A stretch of DNA of 64,000 nucleotides, taken from the NCBI GenBank assembly GCA_045863335.1, contig BTVY01000007.1:105932-169931 (forward strand), in the 5' to 3' direction. Position 1 is the first letter of the stretch. The number at the start of each line of letters is the position of its first letter. Below are positions 14,390-23,675 of the stretch, one piece after another. The notes under the pieces are model-generated. The model did no database searches. It was not told the origin of the DNA and worked only from the letters and a program-made list of their open reading frames with translations. The position numbers were made by a program, and so were the translations under genes. Source of the stretch: Candidatus Hydrogenedentota bacterium (GTDB lineage Bacteria > Hydrogenedentota > Hydrogenedentia > Hydrogenedentales > SLHB01).

Positions 14390-15787
14390 GTGCCTGAATT
14401 GAATATCCCGATCCTATCCGGGTTGCGCGAGTTGGACCGCGCGCCGCGCCAGTTCTTGTATTTCATCGTGTTCAACGTGGTTTCCTGGCAATGCATCGTC
14501 GGGAACGCGCTGGTGCTGTTTGCCCGGAGCCTGGATATCCCCGCGTCTTGGGTGGGGTTTCTTATCGCCTTCATGCCCCTGTCCATGTTGCTGGTGTTGG
14601 TCACCGTTCCGCTGGTCACCTACCTGGGACCGCGCCGGCTCATGTCGACGGCGTGGGGTTCGCGTTGCGTGGTCATCTGCGCGGTGTTCCTGATTCCCTT
14701 TGTGATGGACCGCTACGGGCTGAAACCGGCGCAGTACGTGCTCATGGGCGCGACGCTGGGGTTCTGTCTGTTGCGGGCTATGGGCGGGGGCGGCTGGTTT
14801 CCATGGCTCCATGAGGTGGTGCCGGAACACCAGCGAGGCACCTACTTCAGCACGGAATCGGCCATCACGCAGCTCCTCTGGGTCGTGGTGGCCTCGGCGC
14901 AGGCATTCATCCTGCACGAGAACCCGGGCCTGTACCACTTCCTCGCCTTGTACGCCATCGGGATTGCCGCCGGGTTCATCAGCCTCATCTACATGGTTCG
15001 CGTACCGGGCGGCCGGGGTGTGACCGAACGAGTTTCCATGCACTCAAGCTTTGGAGCGTACCGGATTACCCTGTCTGACCGGCCTTTCCTCCAGTTCGTG
15101 GTCGTCGCGACGCTATGCTTTTCGTGCTTGACGTGGCTCTCCGCGGCGCTGGTTCTTTACATGCGCGACGCGCTCGGATACTCGCCGAGGGACATCATGT
15201 TGATTACGGCCGCCGGCGGCGCGGGTATCCTCGTCACGATCCGCCAGTGGGGCCGGTTCGCCGACCACTCGGGCAGCGGCCGCGCCATGTTCCTGAGTCT
15301 CGTGGGACACAGCGTCAGCGCGCTGGTTTTCCTCATGATCGTTCCCGGCGCCTGGTGGACGTGGTGGCTGCTCCCGCCGACGGTGGTCTTTTCGGGCGTG
15401 TTCGCGGCAGCCTATACCATGGCCGCCCACCGCGCCATGCTGAATTTCGTTCGCTCGCCCGGTCGCGTGGCCTACACCAATTTTTGGACCGTGGGGACGT
15501 CACTCGCCTTGGGCATCACACCGATTCTCGTGGGGTACTCGATCGATCATTGGGGACTCTGGGGATACCGCACCTGCTTCCTGGCCTGTGCCATTGGAGG
15601 AATCTGCTGCGCAGTGGCGAGCCGATTTGCCGTCCAGGACAGCACGCCGCTCGAACCTTCGCTGAGCCGGCTCGTCAATCCGGCCTTGCCAGTGCGCACG
15701 CTCGCACGCATTCTGTGGATCACACTGGGACTGCACGAAAGCGGACGGCGCACAGGGGCGGCGCTTCGTCCGTCAGACCGATCGTGA
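14390..15787 (+). CDS. MFS transporter
   Basis: About 12 hydrophobic segments; YLGPRRL and WGRFADHSGSGRA resemble MFS motif A. Confidence 0.8.
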   Translation: MPELNIPILSGLRELDRAPRQFLYFIVFNVVSWQCIVGNALVLFARSLDIPASWVGFLIAFMPLSMLLVLVTVPLVTYLGPRRLMSTAWGSRCVVICAVFLIPFVMDRYGLKPAQYVLMGATLGFCLLRAMGGGGWFPWLHEVVPEHQRGTYFSTESAITQLLWVVVASAQAFILHENPGLYHFLALYAIGIAAGFISLIYMVRVPGGRGVTERVSMHSSFGAYRITLSDRPFLQFVVVATLCFSCLTWLSAALVLYMRDALGYSPRDIMLITAAGGAGILVTIRQWGRFADHSGSGRAMFLSLVGHSVSALVFLMIVPGAWWTWWLLPPTVVFSGVFAAAYTMAAHRAMLNFVRSPGRVAYTNFWTVGTSLALGITPILVGYSIDHWGLWGYRTCFLACAIGGICCAVASRFAVQDSTPLEPSLSRLVNPALPVRTLARILWITLGLHESGRRTGAALRPSDRS

Positions 15788-15850: not shown

Positions 15851-15904
15851 CTTCATTTATATTGTCAAGAATTTCTCCACAAATGAAGATACATATGATA
15901 TACT
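15851..15904 (+). promoter_or_regulatory. AT-rich promoter region of the 2-oxoacid oxidoreductase operon, with inverted repeat and extended -10
   Basis: CTTCATTT (15851-15858) / AAATGAAG (15881-15888); TG-A-TATACT at 15896-15904. Confidence 0.5.
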
Positions 15905-15950: not shown

Positions 15951-16271
15951 GTGACTTCGACACCGGGCTACCCGCGTACGCCTATGGACCGGGACACGGC
16001 GTACGTACCAAGGGGGCAAGTATTTGTGATCCCGGGACGCTGCAAGGGCTGCGGCTATTGTATCGAGTTCTGCCCGCAGCTCGTTCTTTCCACGTCCAGC
16101 GACATCAACGCGAAGGGTTACCACTACCCTATCGTCGCGGATGAAAAATCGGACGCATGCATCCACTGCGGCTTTTGCGATGTCGTCTGCCCCGAGTTCG
16201 CCATCTACACGGAAGAGATTGATGCGCCCGGATCTCAGGCGTTGGAGGCGCACGATGCCGGGAACCGTTAG
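15951..16271 (+). CDS. 2[4Fe-4S] ferredoxin, 2-oxoacid:acceptor oxidoreductase delta subunit
   Basis: CKGCGYCIEFCP and CIHCGFCDVVCPEFAI, plus NAKGYHYP. GTG start after AGGGGG; the ATG at 15984 is an alternative. Confidence 0.9.
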   Translation: MTSTPGYPRTPMDRDTAYVPRGQVFVIPGRCKGCGYCIEFCPQLVLSTSSDINAKGYHYPIVADEKSDACIHCGFCDVVCPEFAIYTEEIDAPGSQALEAHDAGNR

Positions 16272-17430
16272 CGCAACATCCAGCACTCCGCCCCGCGTCA
16301 TGACCGGCGAGCACTTCATGGTCGGCGACCACGCCTGCGCGGAAGGCGCCCTCGCGGCCGGTCTGGATTTCTTCGCGGGATACCCGATTACCCCATCCAC
16401 CGAGATCTGCGAACGGCTTGCCCACCGGCTGCCGCAGGTGGGCGGAACCTTCGTGCAGATGGAAGATGAACTGGGCAGCATCGCCGCCATTCTGGGCGCA
16501 TCCGCCGCTGGCGCGCGCACCTTGACCGCCACGTCCGGCCCGGGCTTCAGCCTCATGATGGAGAACATCGGCCTGGCGGCGATGATGGAGATTCCCTGCG
16601 TCATCGTGGACGTCATGCGCGGCTCGCCTTCTACCGGTCTGCCCACCTTGGTCGGGCAAGCTGACGTGTTCCAGGCGCGCTGGGGTTCTCATGGCGATTA
16701 CGGGATTGTTGCGTACTCGCCCTCCTCGCCGCAGGAGTGTTTCGATCTCACAATCCGCGCATTCAATGTGGCGGACCGATTGCGCATTCCCGTGTTCGTG
16801 TTGATGGACGAAGTCATCGGCCACATGACGGAGCGCGTCGTGATTCCGCCGGCGCATCAGATTCCCCGCGTGGATCGAAAGCGGCCGTCCCACGAACCCG
16901 GCGACGCGGTGTTCCTGCCGTTCAAGGCGGACGCCGATTTGATTCCCCCCATGGCCCACGCGGGCGAGGGGTACAACGTGCATTTCACGGGGCTGACCCA
17001 CGACGAACGGGGCTACCCCGCGTTGAACGCGCAGACTCACGAGCAATTGGTCACGCGGCTGGTCAACAAGGTGGCCGTTCACGCGCCCGAAGTTATCCTG
17101 ACCGAGGAAGTCGACCTCGACGACGCGGAAGTAGTGGTCGTCGCGTTCGGCTGCACGGCCCGCTCGGCACGCCGCGCGGTAGCGATGGCGCGTCAGCAGG
17201 GTGTCAAGGCGGGATTGCTCCGGCTGATTTCGTTGTGGCCCTTCCCCGAGGAGCGCGTTCGAGAATTGGGACGGCGGGATGCGGTGAAGCGATTTGTGGT
17301 GCCTGAAATCAACATGGGGCAGATGTGCCGCGAGGTGGAACGCCTTACCCATCTGCCCGTGCAGTCCATCAACCGGGCCGGCGGCGCCATGATCACGCCG
17401 CAGTCGATTCTGGAGGTGCTTGTGTCATGA
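16255..17430 (+). CDS. 2-oxoacid:ferredoxin oxidoreductase alpha subunit (KorA-like)
   Basis: FAGYPITPSTE, QMEDELGS, TATSGPGFSLMME, RGSPSTGLPT. ATG after GGAGG. Confidence 0.95.
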   Translation: MPGTVSATSSTPPRVMTGEHFMVGDHACAEGALAAGLDFFAGYPITPSTEICERLAHRLPQVGGTFVQMEDELGSIAAILGASAAGARTLTATSGPGFSLMMENIGLAAMMEIPCVIVDVMRGSPSTGLPTLVGQADVFQARWGSHGDYGIVAYSPSSPQECFDLTIRAFNVADRLRIPVFVLMDEVIGHMTERVVIPPAHQIPRVDRKRPSHEPGDAVFLPFKADADLIPPMAHAGEGYNVHFTGLTHDERGYPALNAQTHEQLVTRLVNKVAVHAPEVILTEEVDLDDAEVVVVAFGCTARSARRAVAMARQQGVKAGLLRLISLWPFPEERVRELGRRDAVKRFVVPEINMGQMCREVERLTHLPVQSINRAGGAMITPQSILEVLVS

Positions 17431-18347
17431 GCGTTCCGGCTCCAGCCGCTACCCAATTCGTTGAAGAGCACCCAATCGATACCCTCCTCCGCGCCGACCG
17501 CTTTCCTCATATTCTCTGCCCCGCCTGCGGCATTGGCTCCGTAATCCATTGCTACGTACAGGCCATTTCCGAATCGGGCATCGACAAGGCGCAGCACGTA
17601 TGCGTGTCGGGTATTGGGTGCAGTGGACGCGCGGCGGGCTACATCAACGTCGACAGCTACCATACCACACACGGGCGCGCGGTACCGTTTGCGCTGGGCA
17701 TTGCGGTGTACCGGCCGGAATTGTGCGTCACGGTGATCAGCGGCGACGGCGACCTGTCGTCCATCGGCGGCAACCATTTGATCCATGCCGCGCGCCGCAA
17801 TGTGAATCTGAACATCATCTGCATCAACAACTTTAACTACGGGATGACCGGCGGTCAGGCGGGGCCGACGACCCCGGTAAGCGCCAAGTCGTCCACAACG
17901 CCTTTCGGCAGTTGGGAGCGCCCGTTCAATCTCCCCCACCTCGCGCACGCCGTCGGCGCTTCCCTGGTGTCACGGTGGACGGTATTGCATGCGCGGCAAC
18001 TCAAGCAGACGATTCTCAAGGCCATGCATAAGCAGGGCTTTGCGTTTATCGAAGTCCTCTCGCCCTGCCCTACCGGTTTCGGCCGGCCGAACGATCGGGG
18101 CGATGGAATCGAAGACATGCGGCGGTACCGCCAGCGTTGCGTCATTGACGACGAGGCGTACCTTCCGGACATTGACATCGATATAACGGACGACACGAGC
18201 CCGATTGTGGTGGGGAACTTCGTCGACATCGACCGCCCCCCCTTCCAGCCGGTGCTCGGGGCGCCTCGTCGTGAAGTGGCAAAGGTATTGGCGGAAAACG
18301 CAAACCAACGGACGAGATCCCGGGAGTCGATTGGCCATGAGCACTGA
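17427..18347 (+). CDS. 2-oxoacid:ferredoxin oxidoreductase beta subunit (TPP-binding, KorB-like)
   Basis: CPACGIG, SGIGCS, HTTHGRA, GDGD...IGGNH, NNFNYGMTGGQ, SPCPT. ATGA overlap with the alpha gene. Confidence 0.95.
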   Translation: MSVPAPAATQFVEEHPIDTLLRADRFPHILCPACGIGSVIHCYVQAISESGIDKAQHVCVSGIGCSGRAAGYINVDSYHTTHGRAVPFALGIAVYRPELCVTVISGDGDLSSIGGNHLIHAARRNVNLNIICINNFNYGMTGGQAGPTTPVSAKSSTTPFGSWERPFNLPHLAHAVGASLVSRWTVLHARQLKQTILKAMHKQGFAFIEVLSPCPTGFGRPNDRGDGIEDMRRYRQRCVIDDEAYLPDIDIDITDDTSPIVVGNFVDIDRPPFQPVLGAPRREVAKVLAENANQRTRSRESIGHEH

Positions 18348-18900
18348 GACAACGCAGAACGGCCCTGTCCAAATCCGCATCGCCGGTTACGGTGGGCAGG
18401 GCGTCATTCTAACCGGCATGCTATTGGGTAAGGCCGCCAGTCTGTACGATGCGAAGGAAGCGGTGTTTACCCAATCCTACGGACCCGAGGCGCGGGGCGG
18501 CGCATCAAGCGCGGACGTGGTGATCTCGTCCGATCCTATTGACTATCCCCTGGTGACGGAGCCGGATATTCTCGTGACGCTATTTCAGGAGGCGTACAGC
18601 AAGTACCGGCCCAGCTTGAAACCCGGTGGCACGCTTATCGTGGAGAGCGATCTTGTGCATACCAACGGCGACGCCAATGTGGCGGGGCTTCCCGCGTCGC
18701 GCATGGCGGAGACGATCGGCCGCCGCATCGTCGCGAACGTCGTCGTATTTGGCTATCTCGTGGGCAAAACGGGCGTCGTCAGCAAAGAGGCCGCCATGAA
18801 AGCTATTGAAGCGACGGTCAAACCGAAGACTTATGAATTGAATCTGAAGGCGTTTACAGCGGGATACGCGCGGGCCACGGAGGAGTCGGGCCGTGAGTGA
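18337..18900 (+). CDS. 2-oxoacid:ferredoxin oxidoreductase gamma subunit (KorC-like)
   Basis: GYGGQGVILTG and QSYGPEARGG. Confidence 0.95.
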   Translation: MSTETTQNGPVQIRIAGYGGQGVILTGMLLGKAASLYDAKEAVFTQSYGPEARGGASSADVVISSDPIDYPLVTEPDILVTLFQEAYSKYRPSLKPGGTLIVESDLVHTNGDANVAGLPASRMAETIGRRIVANVVVFGYLVGKTGVVSKEAAMKAIEATVKPKTYELNLKAFTAGYARATEESGRE

Positions 18901-20299
18901 TGCCGTACTCGTCGTGGGTGGTGGTATCGGCGGTCTCCGCGCGGCGTTAGACCTCGCGCATGCGGGCGCGCGCGTCGTTCTTGTGGAAAACAAGGCAACC
19001 GTCGGCGGCAAGCTTGCCGCACTATTGGAAGAGGGACGGACGGCCCTGGACCTGCCCGAGGGCGCGTGGCTACCCACCCTGGCGCAAGTGGAAGCCAGTT
19101 CGCAGATCGAGATCCTCACGCTTTCCGAGGTGGTCGCGCTGTCCGGCGAACCCGGCGAGTTTGCGGTGACCATCCGCTCCCGTTCCCGCTTCGTGAGCGA
19201 CGTCTGCGACCATTGCAGCGTCTGTAAGCAGGTCTGCCCTGTCGTGCGTCCGAATGAATACGATGCCGGTCTCTCCTTTCGGAAAGCCATCTTCAGTCCC
19301 TTGAAGAGTCCGGTGCCGTCTTCGTTCGTCATCGATATCGACAGTTGCTTGAACGACCCGCCGAACTACATACCCTGTCAGCGTTGCGTAGAGAATTGCC
19401 ATGTAAGCGCGATCAGTTTCGACACGCCACTGGAGCGGACGATTACGCGGGACGTGGGAAGCGTCGTGTTGGCGGCGGGCTTCGACCTGGACGGCGAGAA
19501 GGCGCTCGTAAGGTTCGGATACGGCAAACACCCCGACGTGGTGACGTCGCTCGAATTGGAGCGGCTCTTCGCGGCGTCGGGCGCGACCGGCGGGTACGTG
19601 GAGCGGCCCTCCGACGAGCGCGATCCGGAACGGGTGCTGATTGCGATAGCCGATCCCACGGACTTCACCTGGACCTACACGGCCCGGCACGCGAAGCGCA
19701 TGCTGGATCAAGCGCTGGAACACGTGACCATTGCGTACGAATCGCCTGCCTCCAGCGGCAAAGGTCCGTCGTCGTTCCTTCCCGGTTCGGTACGGGAGAA
19801 GACACGGCTCGTTCATGCGACGGTCGAATCCGTCAATCCAGACTCGGGCGGCGCATTGCTGGTGACCATGCGGGATGGAAGAACGGGCTCCGTTGTGAGT
19901 GAAGCGTTTGATCTCGTCGTAGTCGCGACGGCCGTACAACCACCAAGGAGTATGCCGACCGTATCAGACGCGTTGGGGGTTCGTCTTGGGCCGGACGGGT
20001 TTGTCCGAACAACGGAAAAGGATGGCGCACGCGTGGTAACCAGCCGCCCCGGCGTTTACGCTTGCGGGTGCGTGACCGGTCCGAAAAACATTCACGAGAC
20101 GCTGACGGAAGCGGCGGCGGCTGTGGAACAAGCGTTTCAACACGCGCGGCGTGGCACGCGGCGGGCAGGTCCGCCAAAGCCCGAACTGGAGCCTTCGGGC
20201 AATGGGATATCGGAAGATGCCTTGCGTCAGCGGATGGGGCAAGTGGTCGAAACGCTAATCTCCATGGGCGAAAAGCGCCTCACCAACGGGAACTCCTGA
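18893..20299 (+). CDS. Truncated/degenerate heterodisulfide reductase subunit A-like FAD/Fe-S protein
   Basis: GGGIGG FAD loop, inserted ferredoxin (CDHCSVCKQVCP; C...CQRCVENC), GYGKHPDVVTSLELERL..ASG.TGG..RPSD, and GVYACG...GPKNI, all HdrA hallmarks. Confidence 0.85.
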   Translation: MSDAVLVVGGGIGGLRAALDLAHAGARVVLVENKATVGGKLAALLEEGRTALDLPEGAWLPTLAQVEASSQIEILTLSEVVALSGEPGEFAVTIRSRSRFVSDVCDHCSVCKQVCPVVRPNEYDAGLSFRKAIFSPLKSPVPSSFVIDIDSCLNDPPNYIPCQRCVENCHVSAISFDTPLERTITRDVGSVVLAAGFDLDGEKALVRFGYGKHPDVVTSLELERLFAASGATGGYVERPSDERDPERVLIAIADPTDFTWTYTARHAKRMLDQALEHVTIAYESPASSGKGPSSFLPGSVREKTRLVHATVESVNPDSGGALLVTMRDGRTGSVVSEAFDLVVVATAVQPPRSMPTVSDALGVRLGPDGFVRTTEKDGARVVTSRPGVYACGCVTGPKNIHETLTEAAAAVEQAFQHARRGTRRAGPPKPELEPSGNGISEDALRQRMGQVVETLISMGEKRLTNGNS

Positions 20300-20304
20300 C
20301 GCGG

Positions 20305-20643
20305 TCAAACCTCGTCCAGCGAATCCAGCATGGCCCGGATCTGATTTTCCATCCGGTCGAGGAGGTCGACCACTTCTTTGCGTGTCTTCGGACGCCCCTC
20401 CCCTTTCAACTCTTGGGCAAGCCGTACGCGCGCGCCTTCGGTGGAAAGCTTTTCGTGCCGCAACAATTGCTTGATGCGCCGCACGATCTCGATGTCGCCG
20501 GAGCGGTAGTATCGGCGATTCGCACGATCGCGCCTCGGTTTGAGCTGAGGAAATCGGCTTTCCCACTGGCGAAGGATATAATCCGGCACGTCGGTTAACT
20601 CGCTGACCTCGCGAATGCTGTATCGTTTTTCGGGATGTTCCAT
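20305..20643 (-). CDS. MerR family transcriptional regulator
   Basis: YSIREVSELTDVPDYILRQWESRFPQLKP...RRYY. Start placed at MEHPEK because the longer ORF reads through a repeat. Confidence 0.9.
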   Translation of the reverse strand: MEHPEKRYSIREVSELTDVPDYILRQWESRFPQLKPRRDRANRRYYRSGDIEIVRRIKQLLRHEKLSTEGARVRLAQELKGEGRPKTRKEVVDLLDRMENQIRAMLDSLDEV

Positions 20644-20679
20644 GTTCTGACCAAGTCTGGTTCTACTACCAAACGCGTA

Positions 20680-20924
20680 AGAACATCCCCCTTGATCCCC
20701 CTTCAAAGGGGGAAAAGCCCACAACGCTCCGCGTTGCGAAGAGCGCGGATCGCAATCTCGGAATTCCCGTTCACCGTCTTCAAAATGGGAATTGAGGAGC
20801 GCGCTCCGCGTGCTCTCTTCTTCGGGTCGCTCGGCGCGCGACGAATTGTCATAGCGCGGTCTTTCGATCCCTCGATCGGGGGACGGCAGATTCCCCGTTT
20901 GAAGGGGGATCAAGGGGGATGTTC
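20680..20924. repeat. REP doublet / MITE-like element with ~35-bp inverted arms (CCCCCTT family, copy 1)
   Basis: AGAACATCCCCCTTGATCCCCCTTCAAAGGGGGAA (20680-20714) and a near-perfect reverse complement at 20891-20924. Confidence 0.9.
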
Positions 20925-20967: not shown

Positions 20968-21855
20968 TCACGCGCCGAGCCAATCCTGCGGCTTCAGGTA
21001 GACCTCCGTCAACTCGGCTTCGGGCGTGCCCGGTTCGGGGCGCCAATCGTAGCGCCACTTCGCGACAGCCGGCATGGACATGAGGATCGACTCGATGCGG
21101 CCGCCGGACTGCAATCCGAACAGGGTGCCCCGATCGTACACGAGGTTGAACTCCACGTAGCGCGATCGCCGGTAACATTGAAAATCGCGCTGCGCGTCCG
21201 TGTACGGCGCGTCGCGATGGCGCTCGATCAGAGGCCGGTACAATGACGGAAAGGCGTTGCCCAAGGCACAGACAAATTCGAAGTTCTTCTCCGCGTCGTG
21301 CCGGAGGTGATCGAAGAATAGCCCTCCCACTCCGCGCGTTTCGTTCCGGTGCCGGATGAAGAAGTACTCGTCGCAGGCCTTTTTATGTGTTACATAGTCT
21401 TCACCGCAAGCATCGCAGAGTTGCTTCAACTCGCGGTGGAAGGCAACCACGTCTTCGCGTACCGGATAGTACGGCGTCAGGTCGACGCCGCCGCCGAACC
21501 ACCACAGGTCACCCGCCTCGAAATAGCGCACGTTCAGGTGGATCGTGGGCACATGCGGGTTCCAGGGGTGTATGACCAGACTGACGCCGGTGGCCACGAA
21601 GGGAGTGTCCGGCGCGATATTGAATTGCGTCGCGGCGGACGCGGGAAGACTCTCGCCATGGATGGCGGAAAAATTGACGCCGCCCTTTTCGATCAGCGGG
21701 CCGCCTTCCCACACGCGCGTGATGCCGCCACCGAAGCCCTTCTCGTAGGACCACCGGTCCTCGCGGTACGCTGAGCTGTCTGCCTCGACCAGAAAGCTCG
21801 CGATGCGATCTTGTATGTCGCGAAAAGCGGCCTCGATCGCATCAACGCCCGGCAC
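20968..21855 (-). CDS. hemF: Oxygen-dependent coproporphyrinogen III oxidase
   Basis: EKGGVNFS, GVSLVIHPWNPHVPTIHLNVRYF, WFGGGVDLTPYY, RGVGGLFFD, YVEFNLVYDRGTLFGLQSGGRIESILMS. Confidence 0.97.
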   Translation of the reverse strand: MPGVDAIEAAFRDIQDRIASFLVEADSSAYREDRWSYEKGFGGGITRVWEGGPLIEKGGVNFSAIHGESLPASAATQFNIAPDTPFVATGVSLVIHPWNPHVPTIHLNVRYFEAGDLWWFGGGVDLTPYYPVREDVVAFHRELKQLCDACGEDYVTHKKACDEYFFIRHRNETRGVGGLFFDHLRHDAEKNFEFVCALGNAFPSLYRPLIERHRDAPYTDAQRDFQCYRRSRYVEFNLVYDRGTLFGLQSGGRIESILMSMPAVAKWRYDWRPEPGTPEAELTEVYLKPQDWLGA

Positions 21856-21857
21856 GG

Positions 21858-23675
21858 CTACTCCGCGTTGTTATTCTTGGTGACGGTGTAAACAGTCAAG
21901 TCCTCCAACCCGCTATCGCGACGTCGGAAGATGAATTTGCCCGCCACATAGCCGATGACAAACATCAAGGCGTGCCCGAGGAATCCGACGTAGTAATTGT
22001 GAATGTACTGCGGAATTCCGTCGATCTGGCTGGACAGTGCACAGTACAGCGTGAAGCACAACGTTAACGAGATACCGAGCAACATGGCGCGGTCGTCAGC
22101 GACCTTGGTGAAGAAGCCGAGCATGTAGAACCCAAGCAGGCCGCCCGCAGTCAGTGCGGTCAGTACGGTCGCAGTGTCCTGCAACGTTGTGGTCTGGACG
22201 GTCATGAGGATGGTCGCGCCGACGATCATGATTACGGCAACCGCAACGCCAATAAGCTTCGCCACGAGCGTATAGTGCGCGTCATCCCGTTCGACTGCGA
22301 TGTGGCGGCGGTACACGTCCACCACGCCGACAGCGGAAATGGCATTCATGCTCGACGAAATGCTCGACATGGCGGCGGACAAGACCGCGGCGATTACGAG
22401 CCCGGTGAGTCCACGCGGCAGATAGTGGACGACGAAGTACGGCAGGATGGATTCCGCCTTCGCGCCGTTCGCGCCGGTATAGATCTCCATCGCCGTTTCG
22501 GTCGGAGCGTGAAGGAAGAATACGTAGAGTCCGGATCCCAGGAGCATAAAGAGCGCCCACGTGGGTACGCTGAACGCCGTACAGACGAACATGGCTATCC
22601 GCGCTTCCTTCATACTCTTGGAAGCGGCGTAACGCTGGATAACGTTTTGGTTGGCGCTGTATTCATAGAGCCAGTTTCCGAGCCCCATGATGAGAATAAG
22701 CAGGAACGTCTTGTTTCCCAGATCGCCCAGCGATGTCGGCAACGATTTGATGGGTTCCAGCCGCACTTCGCGCACACGGGTAACCTCTTCGGTCACTTCT
22801 GGATTCTCGATCGAGGCCACCTGTTCCTTTACCAAGGCGAAGACATGGGGAGGATCCGCGATTTCGCGAATAACCACGAGGTCGTCTGGATTCCCGTCGT
22901 CTTCTTCAAAGGCGACCCGTTCATAGCCGTGCGCAGCGGGATTCTCAAACAGCGCCAACGTTTCCGCGGGGATCGCTTCGCCTTCGTTAATGGTTGCGAC
23001 GATATCCGCGTGGTGGCTCATCTTGTCTTCTTCCCAAGCCTTGGAAACGATTTCGCCCATGCCGCCGGGTACGTTTGCGATGACGACGAACATGGCGATC
23101 AAGCCGCCAATCCAGAGCACCATGGCCTGGATGAAATCGGTCCACAACACGGCGCGAATTCCGCCGAGCACGGTATAGAACGACGTGACAATCCCGCCGA
23201 CGAGAATGCAGACATAAGGGTTCCACCCCAATATGGCCTCGACGAGCAAGGACACGAGAAACAGGATCAATGCGACGCGGATAGCCTGTCCCACAATAAA
23301 TGCGCAGGCGGCGTATAAACGCGTCTTGGGGCCGAAACGTTCCTCAAGATACTCGTAGGCGGACGTGATGTGGGAACGGCGGAAGAACGGAAGAAAGAAA
23401 TACGCAGCGAATAACACGACAAAGGGAAGCACGTAGTTGGGCGTCATGCGGTACCAGGCCGCCTTGTACGCGTCGCCGGGGTAGGCCACGAAGGTGATGG
23501 AACTGATGGACGTGGCGAACATGGAAAACCCGACCAGCCAGCCGGGAAAGGATCGATCGCCGAGAAAGTACCCCTCGGTGGTGCGTGATTTGCTCGCGAA
23601 CAGCGGCCCCATGGCCGCCATGGCCCCGAAATACGCGAACAACACGATGAAATCTACAGTGGTGAACCCTTCCAT
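21858..23675 (-). CDS. Sodium:solute symporter (SSS family)
   Basis: YFLGDRS, SAYEYLEERFG, GGIRAVLWTD, NQNVIQRY, SAAMSSISSSMNA. Confidence 0.93.
   Translation of the reverse strand: MEGFTTVDFIVLFAYFGAMAAMGPLFASKSRTTEGYFLGDRSFPGWLVGFSMFATSISSITFVAYPGDAYKAAWYRMTPNYVLPFVVLFAAYFFLPFFRRSHITSAYEYLEERFGPKTRLYAACAFIVGQAIRVALILFLVSLLVEAILGWNPYVCILVGGIVTSFYTVLGGIRAVLWTDFIQAMVLWIGGLIAMFVVIANVPGGMGEIVSKAWEEDKMSHHADIVATINEGEAIPAETLALFENPAAHGYERVAFEEDDGNPDDLVVIREIADPPHVFALVKEQVASIENPEVTEEVTRVREVRLEPIKSLPTSLGDLGNKTFLLILIMGLGNWLYEYSANQNVIQRYAASKSMKEARIAMFVCTAFSVPTWALFMLLGSGLYVFFLHAPTETAMEIYTGANGAKAESILPYFVVHYLPRGLTGLVIAAVLSAAMSSISSSMNAISAVGVVDVYRRHIAVERDDAHYTLVAKLIGVAVAVIMIVGATILMTVQTTTLQDTATVLTALTAGGLLGFYMLGFFTKVADDRAMLLGISLTLCFTLYCALSSQIDGIPQYIHNYYVGFLGHALMFVIGYVAGKFIFRRRDSGLEDLTVYTVTKNNNAE

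Follow-up and report, generated by a model that had tools for sequence, protein, structure and literature searches.

Within a 64,000-nucleotide (nt) stretch of contig BTVY01000007.1 from a Candidatus Hydrogenedentota bacterium (the window, by which we mean the whole stretch; all coordinates are positions within it), five genes follow each other on the same strand at 15951–20299 (+): korD, korA, korB, korG and a gene for a protein resembling heterodisulfide reductase subunit A (HdrA). We consider it fairly probable that this operon encodes a four-subunit 2-oxoacid:ferredoxin oxidoreductase of the Kor/Oor type together with a fifth subunit, a non-bifurcating, HdrA-derived flavo-iron-sulphur (FeS) protein that docks on KorD. 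The same five-gene set occurs in several bacterial phyla and is probably an undescribed five-subunit form of the enzyme. The operon comprises:

15951–16271 (+): korD, delta subunit, 2x[4Fe-4S] ferredoxin-like protein of 106 amino acids (aa) if the start is GTG 15951; Fer4_7 and Fer4 matches
16300–17430 (+): korA, alpha subunit, 376 aa; POR_N and PFOR_II domains
17427–18347 (+): korB, beta subunit, thiamine pyrophosphate (TPP)-binding, 306 aa; TPP_enzyme_C (PF02775, E = 5.3e-31)
18337–18900 (+): korG, gamma subunit, 187 aa; PF01558 (E = 2.8e-35); start ATG 18337 within the end of korB
18880–18886 (+): Shine-Dalgarno-like GGAGGAG inside the end of korG, 7 nt ahead of the GTG start of the HdrA-like gene
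18893–20299 (+): HdrA-like flavo-FeS protein, 468 aa; thioredoxin-reductase (TrxR)-like flavin adenine dinucleotide (FAD) domain with an inserted 2x[4Fe-4S] domain

The list of open reading frames (ORFs) and the domain scans (Pfam and NCBIfam) agree with the preliminary description, which had read the set as delta, alpha, beta, gamma and HdrA-like. All hallmarks of a four-subunit Kor/Oor enzyme were found: POR_N/PFOR_II in alpha, a TPP domain in beta, PF01558 in gamma and 2x[4Fe-4S] in delta. KorA matched PF01855 (E = 1.2e-71) and PF17147 (E = 1.7e-22), exceeded the cut-off of NF006412 (544 versus 411 bits) and is closest, among solved chains, to the alpha subunit of a Pyrococcus 2-keto acid oxidoreductase (1yd7) and to the 2-oxoglutarate synthases 8ys5 and 6n2n. 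For KorD the best NCBIfam models were OGOR_delta and OorD, both under cut-off, and KorG reached 205.9 bits with NF006323 (cut-off 235). OGOR and 2-oxoacid beta-subunit models ranked best for KorB, all of them under cut-off (best 215 versus 364), and we therefore keep the substrate at the general 2-oxoacid level. Overlaps of 4 nt (ATGA), 11 nt and 8 nt (GTG 18893; TGA 18898–18900) join korA to korB, korB to korG and korG to the HdrA-like gene. Since korA begins by homology at ATG 16300, and not at the ORF start 16141, a gap of 28 nt separates it from korD; the earlier picture of five overlapping genes thus holds for the last three junctions but not for the first. Translational coupling of the HdrA-like gene, which had also been proposed, is backed by its overlap with korG and by the GGAGGAG element before its GTG.

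In the following we call relatives of about the same size as the window protein the short family, and the larger, Cys-retaining relatives of about 1130 aa the long forms. The features of the HdrA-like protein that matter here are:

18917–18934 (+): FAD dinucleotide-binding glycine motif G9–G14; G9, G11 and G14 invariant in 26/26 short relatives
19025–19069 (+): degenerate loop LEEGRTALDLPEGAW, residues 45–59, standing in for FPTxDCxxC and facing C194 and C197 of the HdrA chain 5odc
19205–19399 (+): inserted ferredoxin domain, C105–C169; eight invariant Cys and the family motif CLNxPPNYxPC
19631–19693 (+): former cluster site, residues 247–267; Cys-free, 10 residues shorter than in long forms, facing C386, C399, C403 and C404
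20213–20284 (+): C-terminal amphipathic helix, residues 441–464, following a disordered linker (421–438); conserved in the short family

The protein matched the NCBIfam HdrA2 model NF040770 (E = 2.6e-78) over profile positions 140–567 of 777 only and stayed under the curated cut-offs (263.9 versus 1100 bits for NF040770, 206.2 versus 1400 bits for NF041778). Compared by phmmer with solved HdrA (8rvu and 5odc, E about 1e-56, 29–30% identity), its residues 2–414 correspond to chain residues 151–568. Since profile and structure matches cover the core alone, the HdrA N-terminal cluster domain and the C-terminal ferredoxin are absent, as had been noted before. What remains is recognizable: Pfam reported Pyr_redox_2 and FAD_oxidored, the HdrA motifs LELER and GPK are present, and Foldseek placed the HdrA chains 8rvu and 5odc first (template modelling score 0.73), with sHdrA (6tjr) next. 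Pfam, the alignment to 8rvu and 5odc, and Foldseek thus agree with the earlier statement that the FAD loop, the inserted 2[4Fe-4S] domain and LELER are kept. The AlphaFold2 model has a mean predicted local distance difference test (pLDDT) score of 80.2 and a confident TrxR-like body, in which the former cluster site is still a beta-alpha-beta fold (pLDDT about 90). It was built without clusters, and the inserted domain scores low; the C-terminal helix reaches about 85 after a linker below 50. We considered this helix as a monotopic membrane anchor for quinone reduction, which is weakly opposed by its net charge (-2 to +1) and few aromatic residues.

All six Cys of the two extra HdrA Cys motifs are gone. 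In the phmmer alignment to solved HdrA, Cys-free stretches replace both FPTxDCxxC and the CVGSR...Cys segment, in accordance with the preliminary description. Arg265 and E223 stand at the positions of K409 and E356 of 5odc (5odc residue numbers are our own count along the alignment). K409 together with E356 has been used as a criterion for bifurcation, according to PMC12054007; of this pair, the window protein keeps the glutamate and has R265 in place of the lysine. The Arg, too, had been noted before, yet it is not a feature of the whole family: the K409 position is occupied by S in 12, R in 8, A in 3 and T in 1 of 24 short forms, versus K in 52/52 long forms. At the E356 position we found E in 16 and Q in 8 of the 24 short forms and E in 52/52 long forms.

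The partners of a bifurcating HdrA are missing as well. The window genome (6.75 Mb, 99.4% complete) encodes no detectable FlpD/MvhD, second HdrA or HdrCB homologue, and its only two CCG-domain proteins, an FAD-oxidase fusion and a LUD-domain fusion, belong to other families than HdrB/C. The absence of hdrB/C and mvhD, first reported for the window, therefore extends to the whole genome. In canonical HdrA, as described in PMC13518236, the flavin sends a low-potential electron to the inserted ferredoxin domain and a high-potential electron through further HdrA clusters to HdrC and HdrB. With the extra Cys, the flavin-side Lys and every Hdr partner lost, the HdrA-like protein would be unable to bifurcate; since only the flavin and the low-potential branch are kept, it would in our reading relay electrons between Kor and FAD in a non-bifurcating way. 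The term non-bifurcating, already used in the preliminary description, rests on these three losses: the Cys outside the inserted domain, the K409 equivalent and the Hdr partners in the genome.

This composition is shared by a whole family. Searching 5.8 billion proteins yielded 105 matches, about three dozen of them 437–489 aa long and 34–83% identical to the query. The Cys motifs are lacking in all 26 aligned short relatives, which keep the inserted-domain Cys (105, 108, 111, 115, 152, 162, 165 and 169, each invariant), the FAD glycines and CLNxPPNYxPC; 50 columns are invariant over these 26 sequences at identities down to 35%. A profile search of 1.84 billion cluster representatives added 14 full-length short representatives and two fragments with the CLNxPPNY motif, and none of the 16 has any of the three Cys motifs. 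Other stand-alone HdrA of about 430–470 aa in the cluster-representative list keep the Cys and lack CLNxPPNY. FPTLDCSIC occurs in every long-form row listed and in no short form; the column conservation of the degenerate loop (45–59) is gone in short forms, and conservation is relaxed at residues 46–65 and 283–311. For the window gene and an orthologue of 99% identity, the ratio of nonsynonymous to synonymous substitution rates (dN/dS) was 0.013 at a dS of 0.385; with an orthologue of 96% identity it was 0.062 (dS 0.30). Both values indicate purifying selection and not decay. With distant orthologues dS is saturated, and dN of the HdrA-like protein (0.16–0.32) exceeds that of the Kor subunits (0.06–0.18). 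Cys-retaining close homologues beside a decaying copy had been named as the outcome to look for; instead, 26/26 aligned and 14/14 representative sequences are Cys-less, with dN/dS as given above. Two short orthologues (G079:C149:11856–13247 and G095:C15:15023–16417) were each reported with one in-frame TGA.

We then scanned one genome per species and found 259 relatives among 273 pattern matches, of which 80 loci were kept (54 with the Cys-retaining and 26 with the Cys-less form); kor genes were called by tblastn with the window Kor proteins. These loci carry at least eight phylum-level labels; 77 of the 80 have at least korG immediately upstream in the same orientation, and 68 have the full set of four kor genes. 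The three exceptions are two loci cut inside the hdrA gene at a contig end (L002 and L005) and one long-form locus with unrelated upstream genes (L080); the other incomplete loci begin inside the operon. Since flanking genes (the MFS transporter, the MerR regulator and others) are common only to close relatives, conservation as a unit is confined to precisely these five genes. Within the phylum, 21 of 135 genomes (G000 included) have strong short-HdrA orthologues, and the same 21 have KorA orthologues of at least 69% identity or contig-cut pieces of 82–99%; neither the short HdrA nor its Kor occurs alone in any of the 135. Related genomes are not independent, and this co-occurrence is a matter of consistency and not a statistical test. 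Ten further genomes of the phylum contain only KorA paralogues of 46–49% identity. Three paralogous korDABG operons that we fetched showed no hdrA-like match within the 705, 771 and 2774 nt available downstream of korG. The kor linkage of the HdrA-like gene is obligate; a lack of conserved linkage, the other outcome named in advance, is not what these counts give.

By record labels, short forms occur in Hydrogenedentota, Gammaproteobacteria (Woeseiaceae and others), Nitrospirota-labelled metagenome-assembled genomes (MAGs) and one FCB-group MAG. One of the loci, L002, is labelled as an uncultured Nitrospiraceae MAG, and its HdrA-like protein is 99% identical to that of the window, with downstream genes at 93% identity; as the other nearest relatives of the window are labelled Hydrogenedentota, one bin label is probably wrong. 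Five long-form loci (L021, L026, L055, L072 and L030) carry about 0.6–1.6 kb of extra DNA between kor genes or before hdrA, for example between korB and korG in L021 and L026 and between korG and hdrA in L055.

For a physical contact between the fifth protein and Kor, we predicted the complex of KorD with the HdrA-like protein from own 15-row alignments, with four 4Fe-4S clusters riding along, in three runs and with three controls. Two segments are concerned:

15969–16010 (+): KorD N-terminal arm, residues 7–20; invariant R9, P11, D13 and A17; predicted contact with the HdrA-like protein
19229–19285 (+): predicted KorD docking surface of the HdrA-like protein, residues 113–131 (CPVVRPNEYDAGLSFRK region); P116, N121, R130 and K131 invariant in the short family

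The complex scored 0.70, 0.69 and 0.73 (median 0.70) versus 0.00 for the best of the three controls. In the calibration, 58 of 80 solved complexes came up to this mark, as against 2 of 110 mismatched pairs. The runs share at least 80% of their contacts, with a partner pLDDT of at least 82. Contacts of lowest error join KorD 9–20 to residues 116–131 of the HdrA-like protein, and the interface falls on invariant columns of both partners (KorD R9, P11, D13 and A17; HdrA-like 116–131 and 160–164). KorD itself has eight Cys that are invariant across 15 HdrA-linked sequences. The arm and a KGYHY-type insert are absent from 3/3 paralogous KorD from kor operons without a detected hdrA-like gene; the insert is present in 21/21 short-form and 39/47 long-form KorD. 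The model supports docking of the HdrA-like protein on KorD, and the earlier proposal of a dedicated fifth subunit gains support from it. A prediction with all four Kor subunits had been suggested; the one made here covers the pair with KorD.

Taken together, the operon may work as follows. The fifth protein would dock on the delta subunit via the N-terminal arm of KorD and its own inserted ferredoxin domain, and would thereby extend the Kor wire from TPP through the beta cluster, the two delta clusters and the two clusters of the HdrA-like protein to FAD. The FAD would link Kor to a two-electron carrier by converting between one-electron and two-electron transfer. Our first guess for this acceptor is NAD(P)+, reduced directly at an exposed flavin; quinone, O2 or a protein partner are alternatives. 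Direction of electron flow, substrate 2-oxoacid and acceptor are all inferred.

Several points weigh against a five-subunit enzyme of this kind. The complex and its activity are predictions from sequence and, for the KorD contact, from a model. The predicted contact involves KorD and not the whole Kor enzyme, it gives no cluster-to-cluster distances, and the calibration of the score covered neither riding ligands nor user alignments. Solved Hdr complexes place ferredoxin-like proteins by the inserted domain of HdrA, so that model memory may contribute. With respect to NAD(P)+, we searched the HdrA-like protein and the family alignments for a second glycine-rich dinucleotide motif and found only the N-terminal one; where GxGxxG used to be, the sequence is now [hydrophobic]-x-D-x-[ST]-x-F, which offers no sequence support for NAD(P)H binding. 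The cluster-less face shows relaxed conservation with no new conserved motif or visible new active site, and the long branches of the short clade fit a change of function but also, in part, relaxed constraint. Finally, the window genome has three genes for haem-copper oxidase subunit I along with a 2-oxoglutarate dehydrogenase E1, and Kor is thus not needed for an oxidative tricarboxylic acid (TCA) cycle. The host looks like an aerobe or facultative aerobe whose TCA cycle does not depend on this Kor. Its genome has three further POR_N loci; the ATP-citrate lyase domain PF16114 had no match there, nor any in the controls, and we draw nothing from this blank.

The HdrA-like protein might instead be a separate, soluble and ferredoxin-dependent flavoenzyme (a ferredoxin:NAD(P)+ or ferredoxin:X oxidoreductase, for instance) that re-oxidizes the free ferredoxin reduced by Kor without being bound to it. 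Operon membership and co-occurrence would be equally expected for such a dedicated but unbound partner, and in canonical HdrA the inserted domain is the ferredoxin-facing branch (PMC13518236). But the complex prediction passes with an interface on residues conserved in both families, the HdrA-linked KorD carries an arm and an insert that KorD from operons without a detected HdrA-like gene lacks, and the linkage, with 0/135 genomes having one alone, is tighter than usual for carrier-mediated partners. We regard a soluble enzyme as unlikely, while still giving it some weight. Less probable, in our view, is a protective role in which the FAD dumps surplus low-potential electrons of Kor on O2 or another oxidant and so keeps Kor usable in aerobes. 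The respiratory genes of the window genome and its 2-oxoglutarate dehydrogenase would suit it, as would the neighbouring ORF that resembles an oxygen-dependent coproporphyrinogen oxidase and the labels, which place short forms in Hydrogenedentota, Woeseiaceae and other Gammaproteobacteria, and long forms in Anaerolineae, Elusimicrobia and Methylomirabilota. The hosts of long forms are presumably for the most part anaerobes, which would make for a contrast in lifestyle. It is not obvious why a protective device should be inherited so strictly together with one Kor clade, and no new conserved site lies near the lost cluster.

Continued electron bifurcation with unrecognized partners encoded elsewhere appears highly improbable: the window protein still has E223, the counterpart of HdrA E356 and a residue found in 16/24 short forms, and the Cys-retaining long relatives look bifurcation-competent (K and E in 52/52), but no Cys is left beyond the inserted domain, K409 has no conserved counterpart, and the genome, lacking HdrBC, MvhD and a second HdrA, leaves a single route to and from the flavin. 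That the gene is a functionless relic carried along by the kor operon we find barely credible. The long branches of the short clade and the relaxed conservation around 46–65 and 283–311 could be taken that way; the low dN/dS (0.013–0.062), 50 invariant columns over 26 sequences, and retention across several phyla and in 21/21 Kor-carrying genomes of the phylum contradict it.

How an enzyme with a docked, non-bifurcating fifth subunit may have arisen is suggested by the long forms. These are about 1130 aa long where the contig permits. Residues 1–440 are the same module as the short form, with FPTLDCSIC, CVGSRD...CSRFCCMYSIKHA and the Lys intact; it is followed by an HdrA N-terminal domain, a second TrxR domain that has a Cys motif of its own, a ferredoxin domain and MvhD/FlpD. 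In the locus L031 (4167–13373), which we scanned, korDABG and the fusion of about 1130 aa precede a 392-aa protein with Fer4 and 2xCCG (best NCBIfam model TfrB, under cut-off), EtfA and EtfB. Most other long-form loci (e.g. L018, L021, L029 and L038) have ORFs of similar size after the long form. On sequence grounds, this layout of kor, HdrA fusion, HdrCB-like protein and EtfAB is a candidate Etf-Hdr-Kor bifurcating system. Record labels of the layout include Chloroflexota, Methylomirabilota/Rokubacteria, Elusimicrobia, Planctomycetota and Sysuimicrobiota. In two loci (L012 and L019), ORFs of 1340 and 1334 aa had suggested a KorG-HdrA fusion; PF01558 is not among the 25 families listed for each, and in L012 the ORF starts in another frame than its korG, pointing to over-extension of the ORF.

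A careful tree of 32 rows (16 short; left out were two outgroups, 37 long rows, 5 short rows that were near-duplicates and L066, the short row with the longest branch) united all 16 short rows in one clade, with ultrafast bootstrap and Shimodaira–Hasegawa-like approximate likelihood ratio test (SH-aLRT) values of 100/100 and recovery in 100% of 200 bootstrap trees. In a quick tree of 77 rows, too, the short clade had an SH-aLRT of 100. Rooted on canonical HdrA, the clade falls inside the long forms, beside Elusimicrobia and Planctomycetota sequences. Its earliest branch is L011, where the length of the loop is kept and Gly and Ser take the place of Cys. Two such intermediates (L011:3919–5388 and L008:1887–3365) retain a full-length former cluster loop with every Cys replaced (LGIGSRKRFGMLHSSGFSWNY in L011). 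Since the short clade is single and nested in the long forms, fission and loss gave rise to the short form on one occasion only. It is a stand-alone remnant of module 1 of a larger kor-linked Hdr-Etf system.

A more far-reaching interpretation, which we offer tentatively and hold to be possible rather than probable, sees in the five genes what is left of an Etf-Hdr-Kor super-module, widespread and so far undescribed, and in the result a new, ferredoxin-independent class of five-subunit 2-oxoacid:NAD(P)+ (or other two-electron acceptor) oxidoreductases. In the super-module, low-potential electrons would pass directly from a bifurcating flavin to the 2-oxoacid synthase with no free ferredoxin in between, much as methanogen Hdr feeds formylmethanofuran dehydrogenase. 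The fusion would have broken in one lineage, where module 1 lost the extra Cys and the Lys but kept its dock on KorD, and the resulting enzyme would since have spread in Hydrogenedentota, Gammaproteobacteria and others.

Several known systems resemble parts of this arrangement. Canonical HdrA of HdrABC-MvhAGD (5odc, 8rvu and 7bkb) has the TrxR-like FAD fold and the inserted 2x[4Fe-4S] domain in common with the window protein, which lacks its N-terminal cluster domain, C-terminal ferredoxin, Cys 194, 197, 386, 399, 403 and 404, and K409. Canonical HdrA works with HdrB, HdrC and usually MvhD, all three of which are missing from the window genome. Another minimal HdrA-like flavoprotein of bacterial origin is the sHdrA of Hyphomicrobium denitrificans (6tjr; Foldseek E = 1.2e-26, phmmer E = 2.5e-23). 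It keeps the [4Fe-4S] cluster of the TrxR domain and has no inserted ferredoxin domain, whereas the window protein shows the opposite loss, with the inserted domain kept and the other Cys gone. In addition, sHdrA acts in sulfur oxidation with sHdrB and sHdrC, while the context of the window protein is kor.

A flavoprotein as fifth subunit has a functional precedent in phenylglyoxylate:NAD+ oxidoreductase (Pad, PadEFGHI), in which an FAD/FeS subunit passes electrons to pyridine nucleotide. That subunit belongs to the GltD/NfnB type and has a site for pyridine nucleotide, whereas the window protein is HdrA-derived and has a single dinucleotide motif. No GltD-type domain was found among the 13 Pfam families matched at E ≤0.01, and the one GltD-like NCBIfam match, NF009409, reached only 21.4 bits (cut-off 343). 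The Kor subunits, too, remain far under the Pad cut-offs (84, 48 and 47.7 versus 700, 700 and 300 bits).

Among archaeal proteins, class A6 HdrA comes closest in layout: as described in PMC12054007, it is an HdrA1 minus the N-terminal cluster and C-terminal ferredoxin domains and so consists of the TrxR domains and the inserted ferredoxin, just like the window protein, in which, however, the Cys for the TrxR-side cluster are missing. The kor-linked relatives of about 1130 aa, with two TrxR domains and MvhD, recall the type II with MVH of the same survey. This survey concerns methane- and alkane-metabolising archaea, and its main text does not contain the terms oxoglutarate, oxoacid, pyruvate or EtfAB. 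The korABCD and flxABCD-hdrABC genes of tubeworm symbionts and Thioflavicoccus are interleaved, and the respective reports propose direct electron delivery from the Hdr complex to 2-oxoglutarate oxidoreductase (PMC6315080, PMC11636981). Those clusters, as far as described there, encode a full HdrABC and a FlxABCD NADH dehydrogenase module; the window has a lone Cys-less HdrA core. According to PMC13768988, 2-oxoacid:ferredoxin oxidoreductases have one, two, four or five subunits, the only accepted fifth one being the CODH/ACS epsilon-like subunit of Aquificae (CODH, carbon monoxide dehydrogenase; ACS, acetyl-CoA synthase). It is an extra 21–28 kDa protein of the five-subunit For/Por enzymes (PMC10052474, PMC13768988). 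Like the window operon, these enzymes combine four canonical subunits with an extra one and have a gene order that opens with the ferredoxin-like subunit, but their fifth subunit is neither a flavoprotein nor HdrA-like, in contrast to the product of the window's fifth gene.

The preliminary description had not recognized the arrangement as described. Our literature search, likewise, found no account of a Cys-less HdrA beside kor or of a kor/HdrA fusion/Etf cluster, though a 2021 review of bacterial HdrA modules may bear on this. We take the finding to be a subclass of HdrA and a new subunit composition for the 2-oxoacid oxidoreductase family. If true, a second five-subunit form that crosses phyla would change the annotation of such operons, whose fifth gene is now labelled 'heterodisulfide reductase subunit A'. 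A flavoprotein on the delta subunit would point to a route from 2-oxoacid to a two-electron carrier that bypasses soluble ferredoxin. The short clade, left with the flavin and the low-potential branch only, is a natural experiment on the role of the lost cluster and Lys in bifurcation, and the Cys-retaining long relatives with HdrCB-like proteins and EtfAB might form a bifurcating complex of a new kind that is coupled to carboxylation.

With regard to expression, contigs of one RNA-labelled library span the entire operon, and one of them bridges the junction of korG and the HdrA-like gene with zero differences. A contig, however, is no proof of a transcript, and the same library covers the flanks too and may contain DNA, so these contigs are no evidence of co-transcription; three further runs cover the operon only in parts. 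A promoter and terminator scan gave counts no higher than in shuffled sequence, and we give no weight to a 9-of-12 site at 15876–15904 before korD.

Directly upstream of korD, on the same strand, lies the gene for an MFS transporter of 465 aa (14390–15787, +) with 70%-identical counterparts in L001 and L004. Uptake of the substrate 2-oxoacid is a possible role for this transporter, which is, however, conserved in close relatives only. A MerR-family regulator of 202 aa (20305–20913, -), convergent with the end of the operon and kept in this position only in L001–L005, could control the operon or its neighbours. Further downstream, a pair of ORFs on the reverse strand, also conserved in L001–L005, encodes proteins of 295 aa (20968–21855), which we take to be an oxygen-dependent coproporphyrinogen oxidase, and of 605 aa (21858–23675), presumably a sodium:solute symporter.

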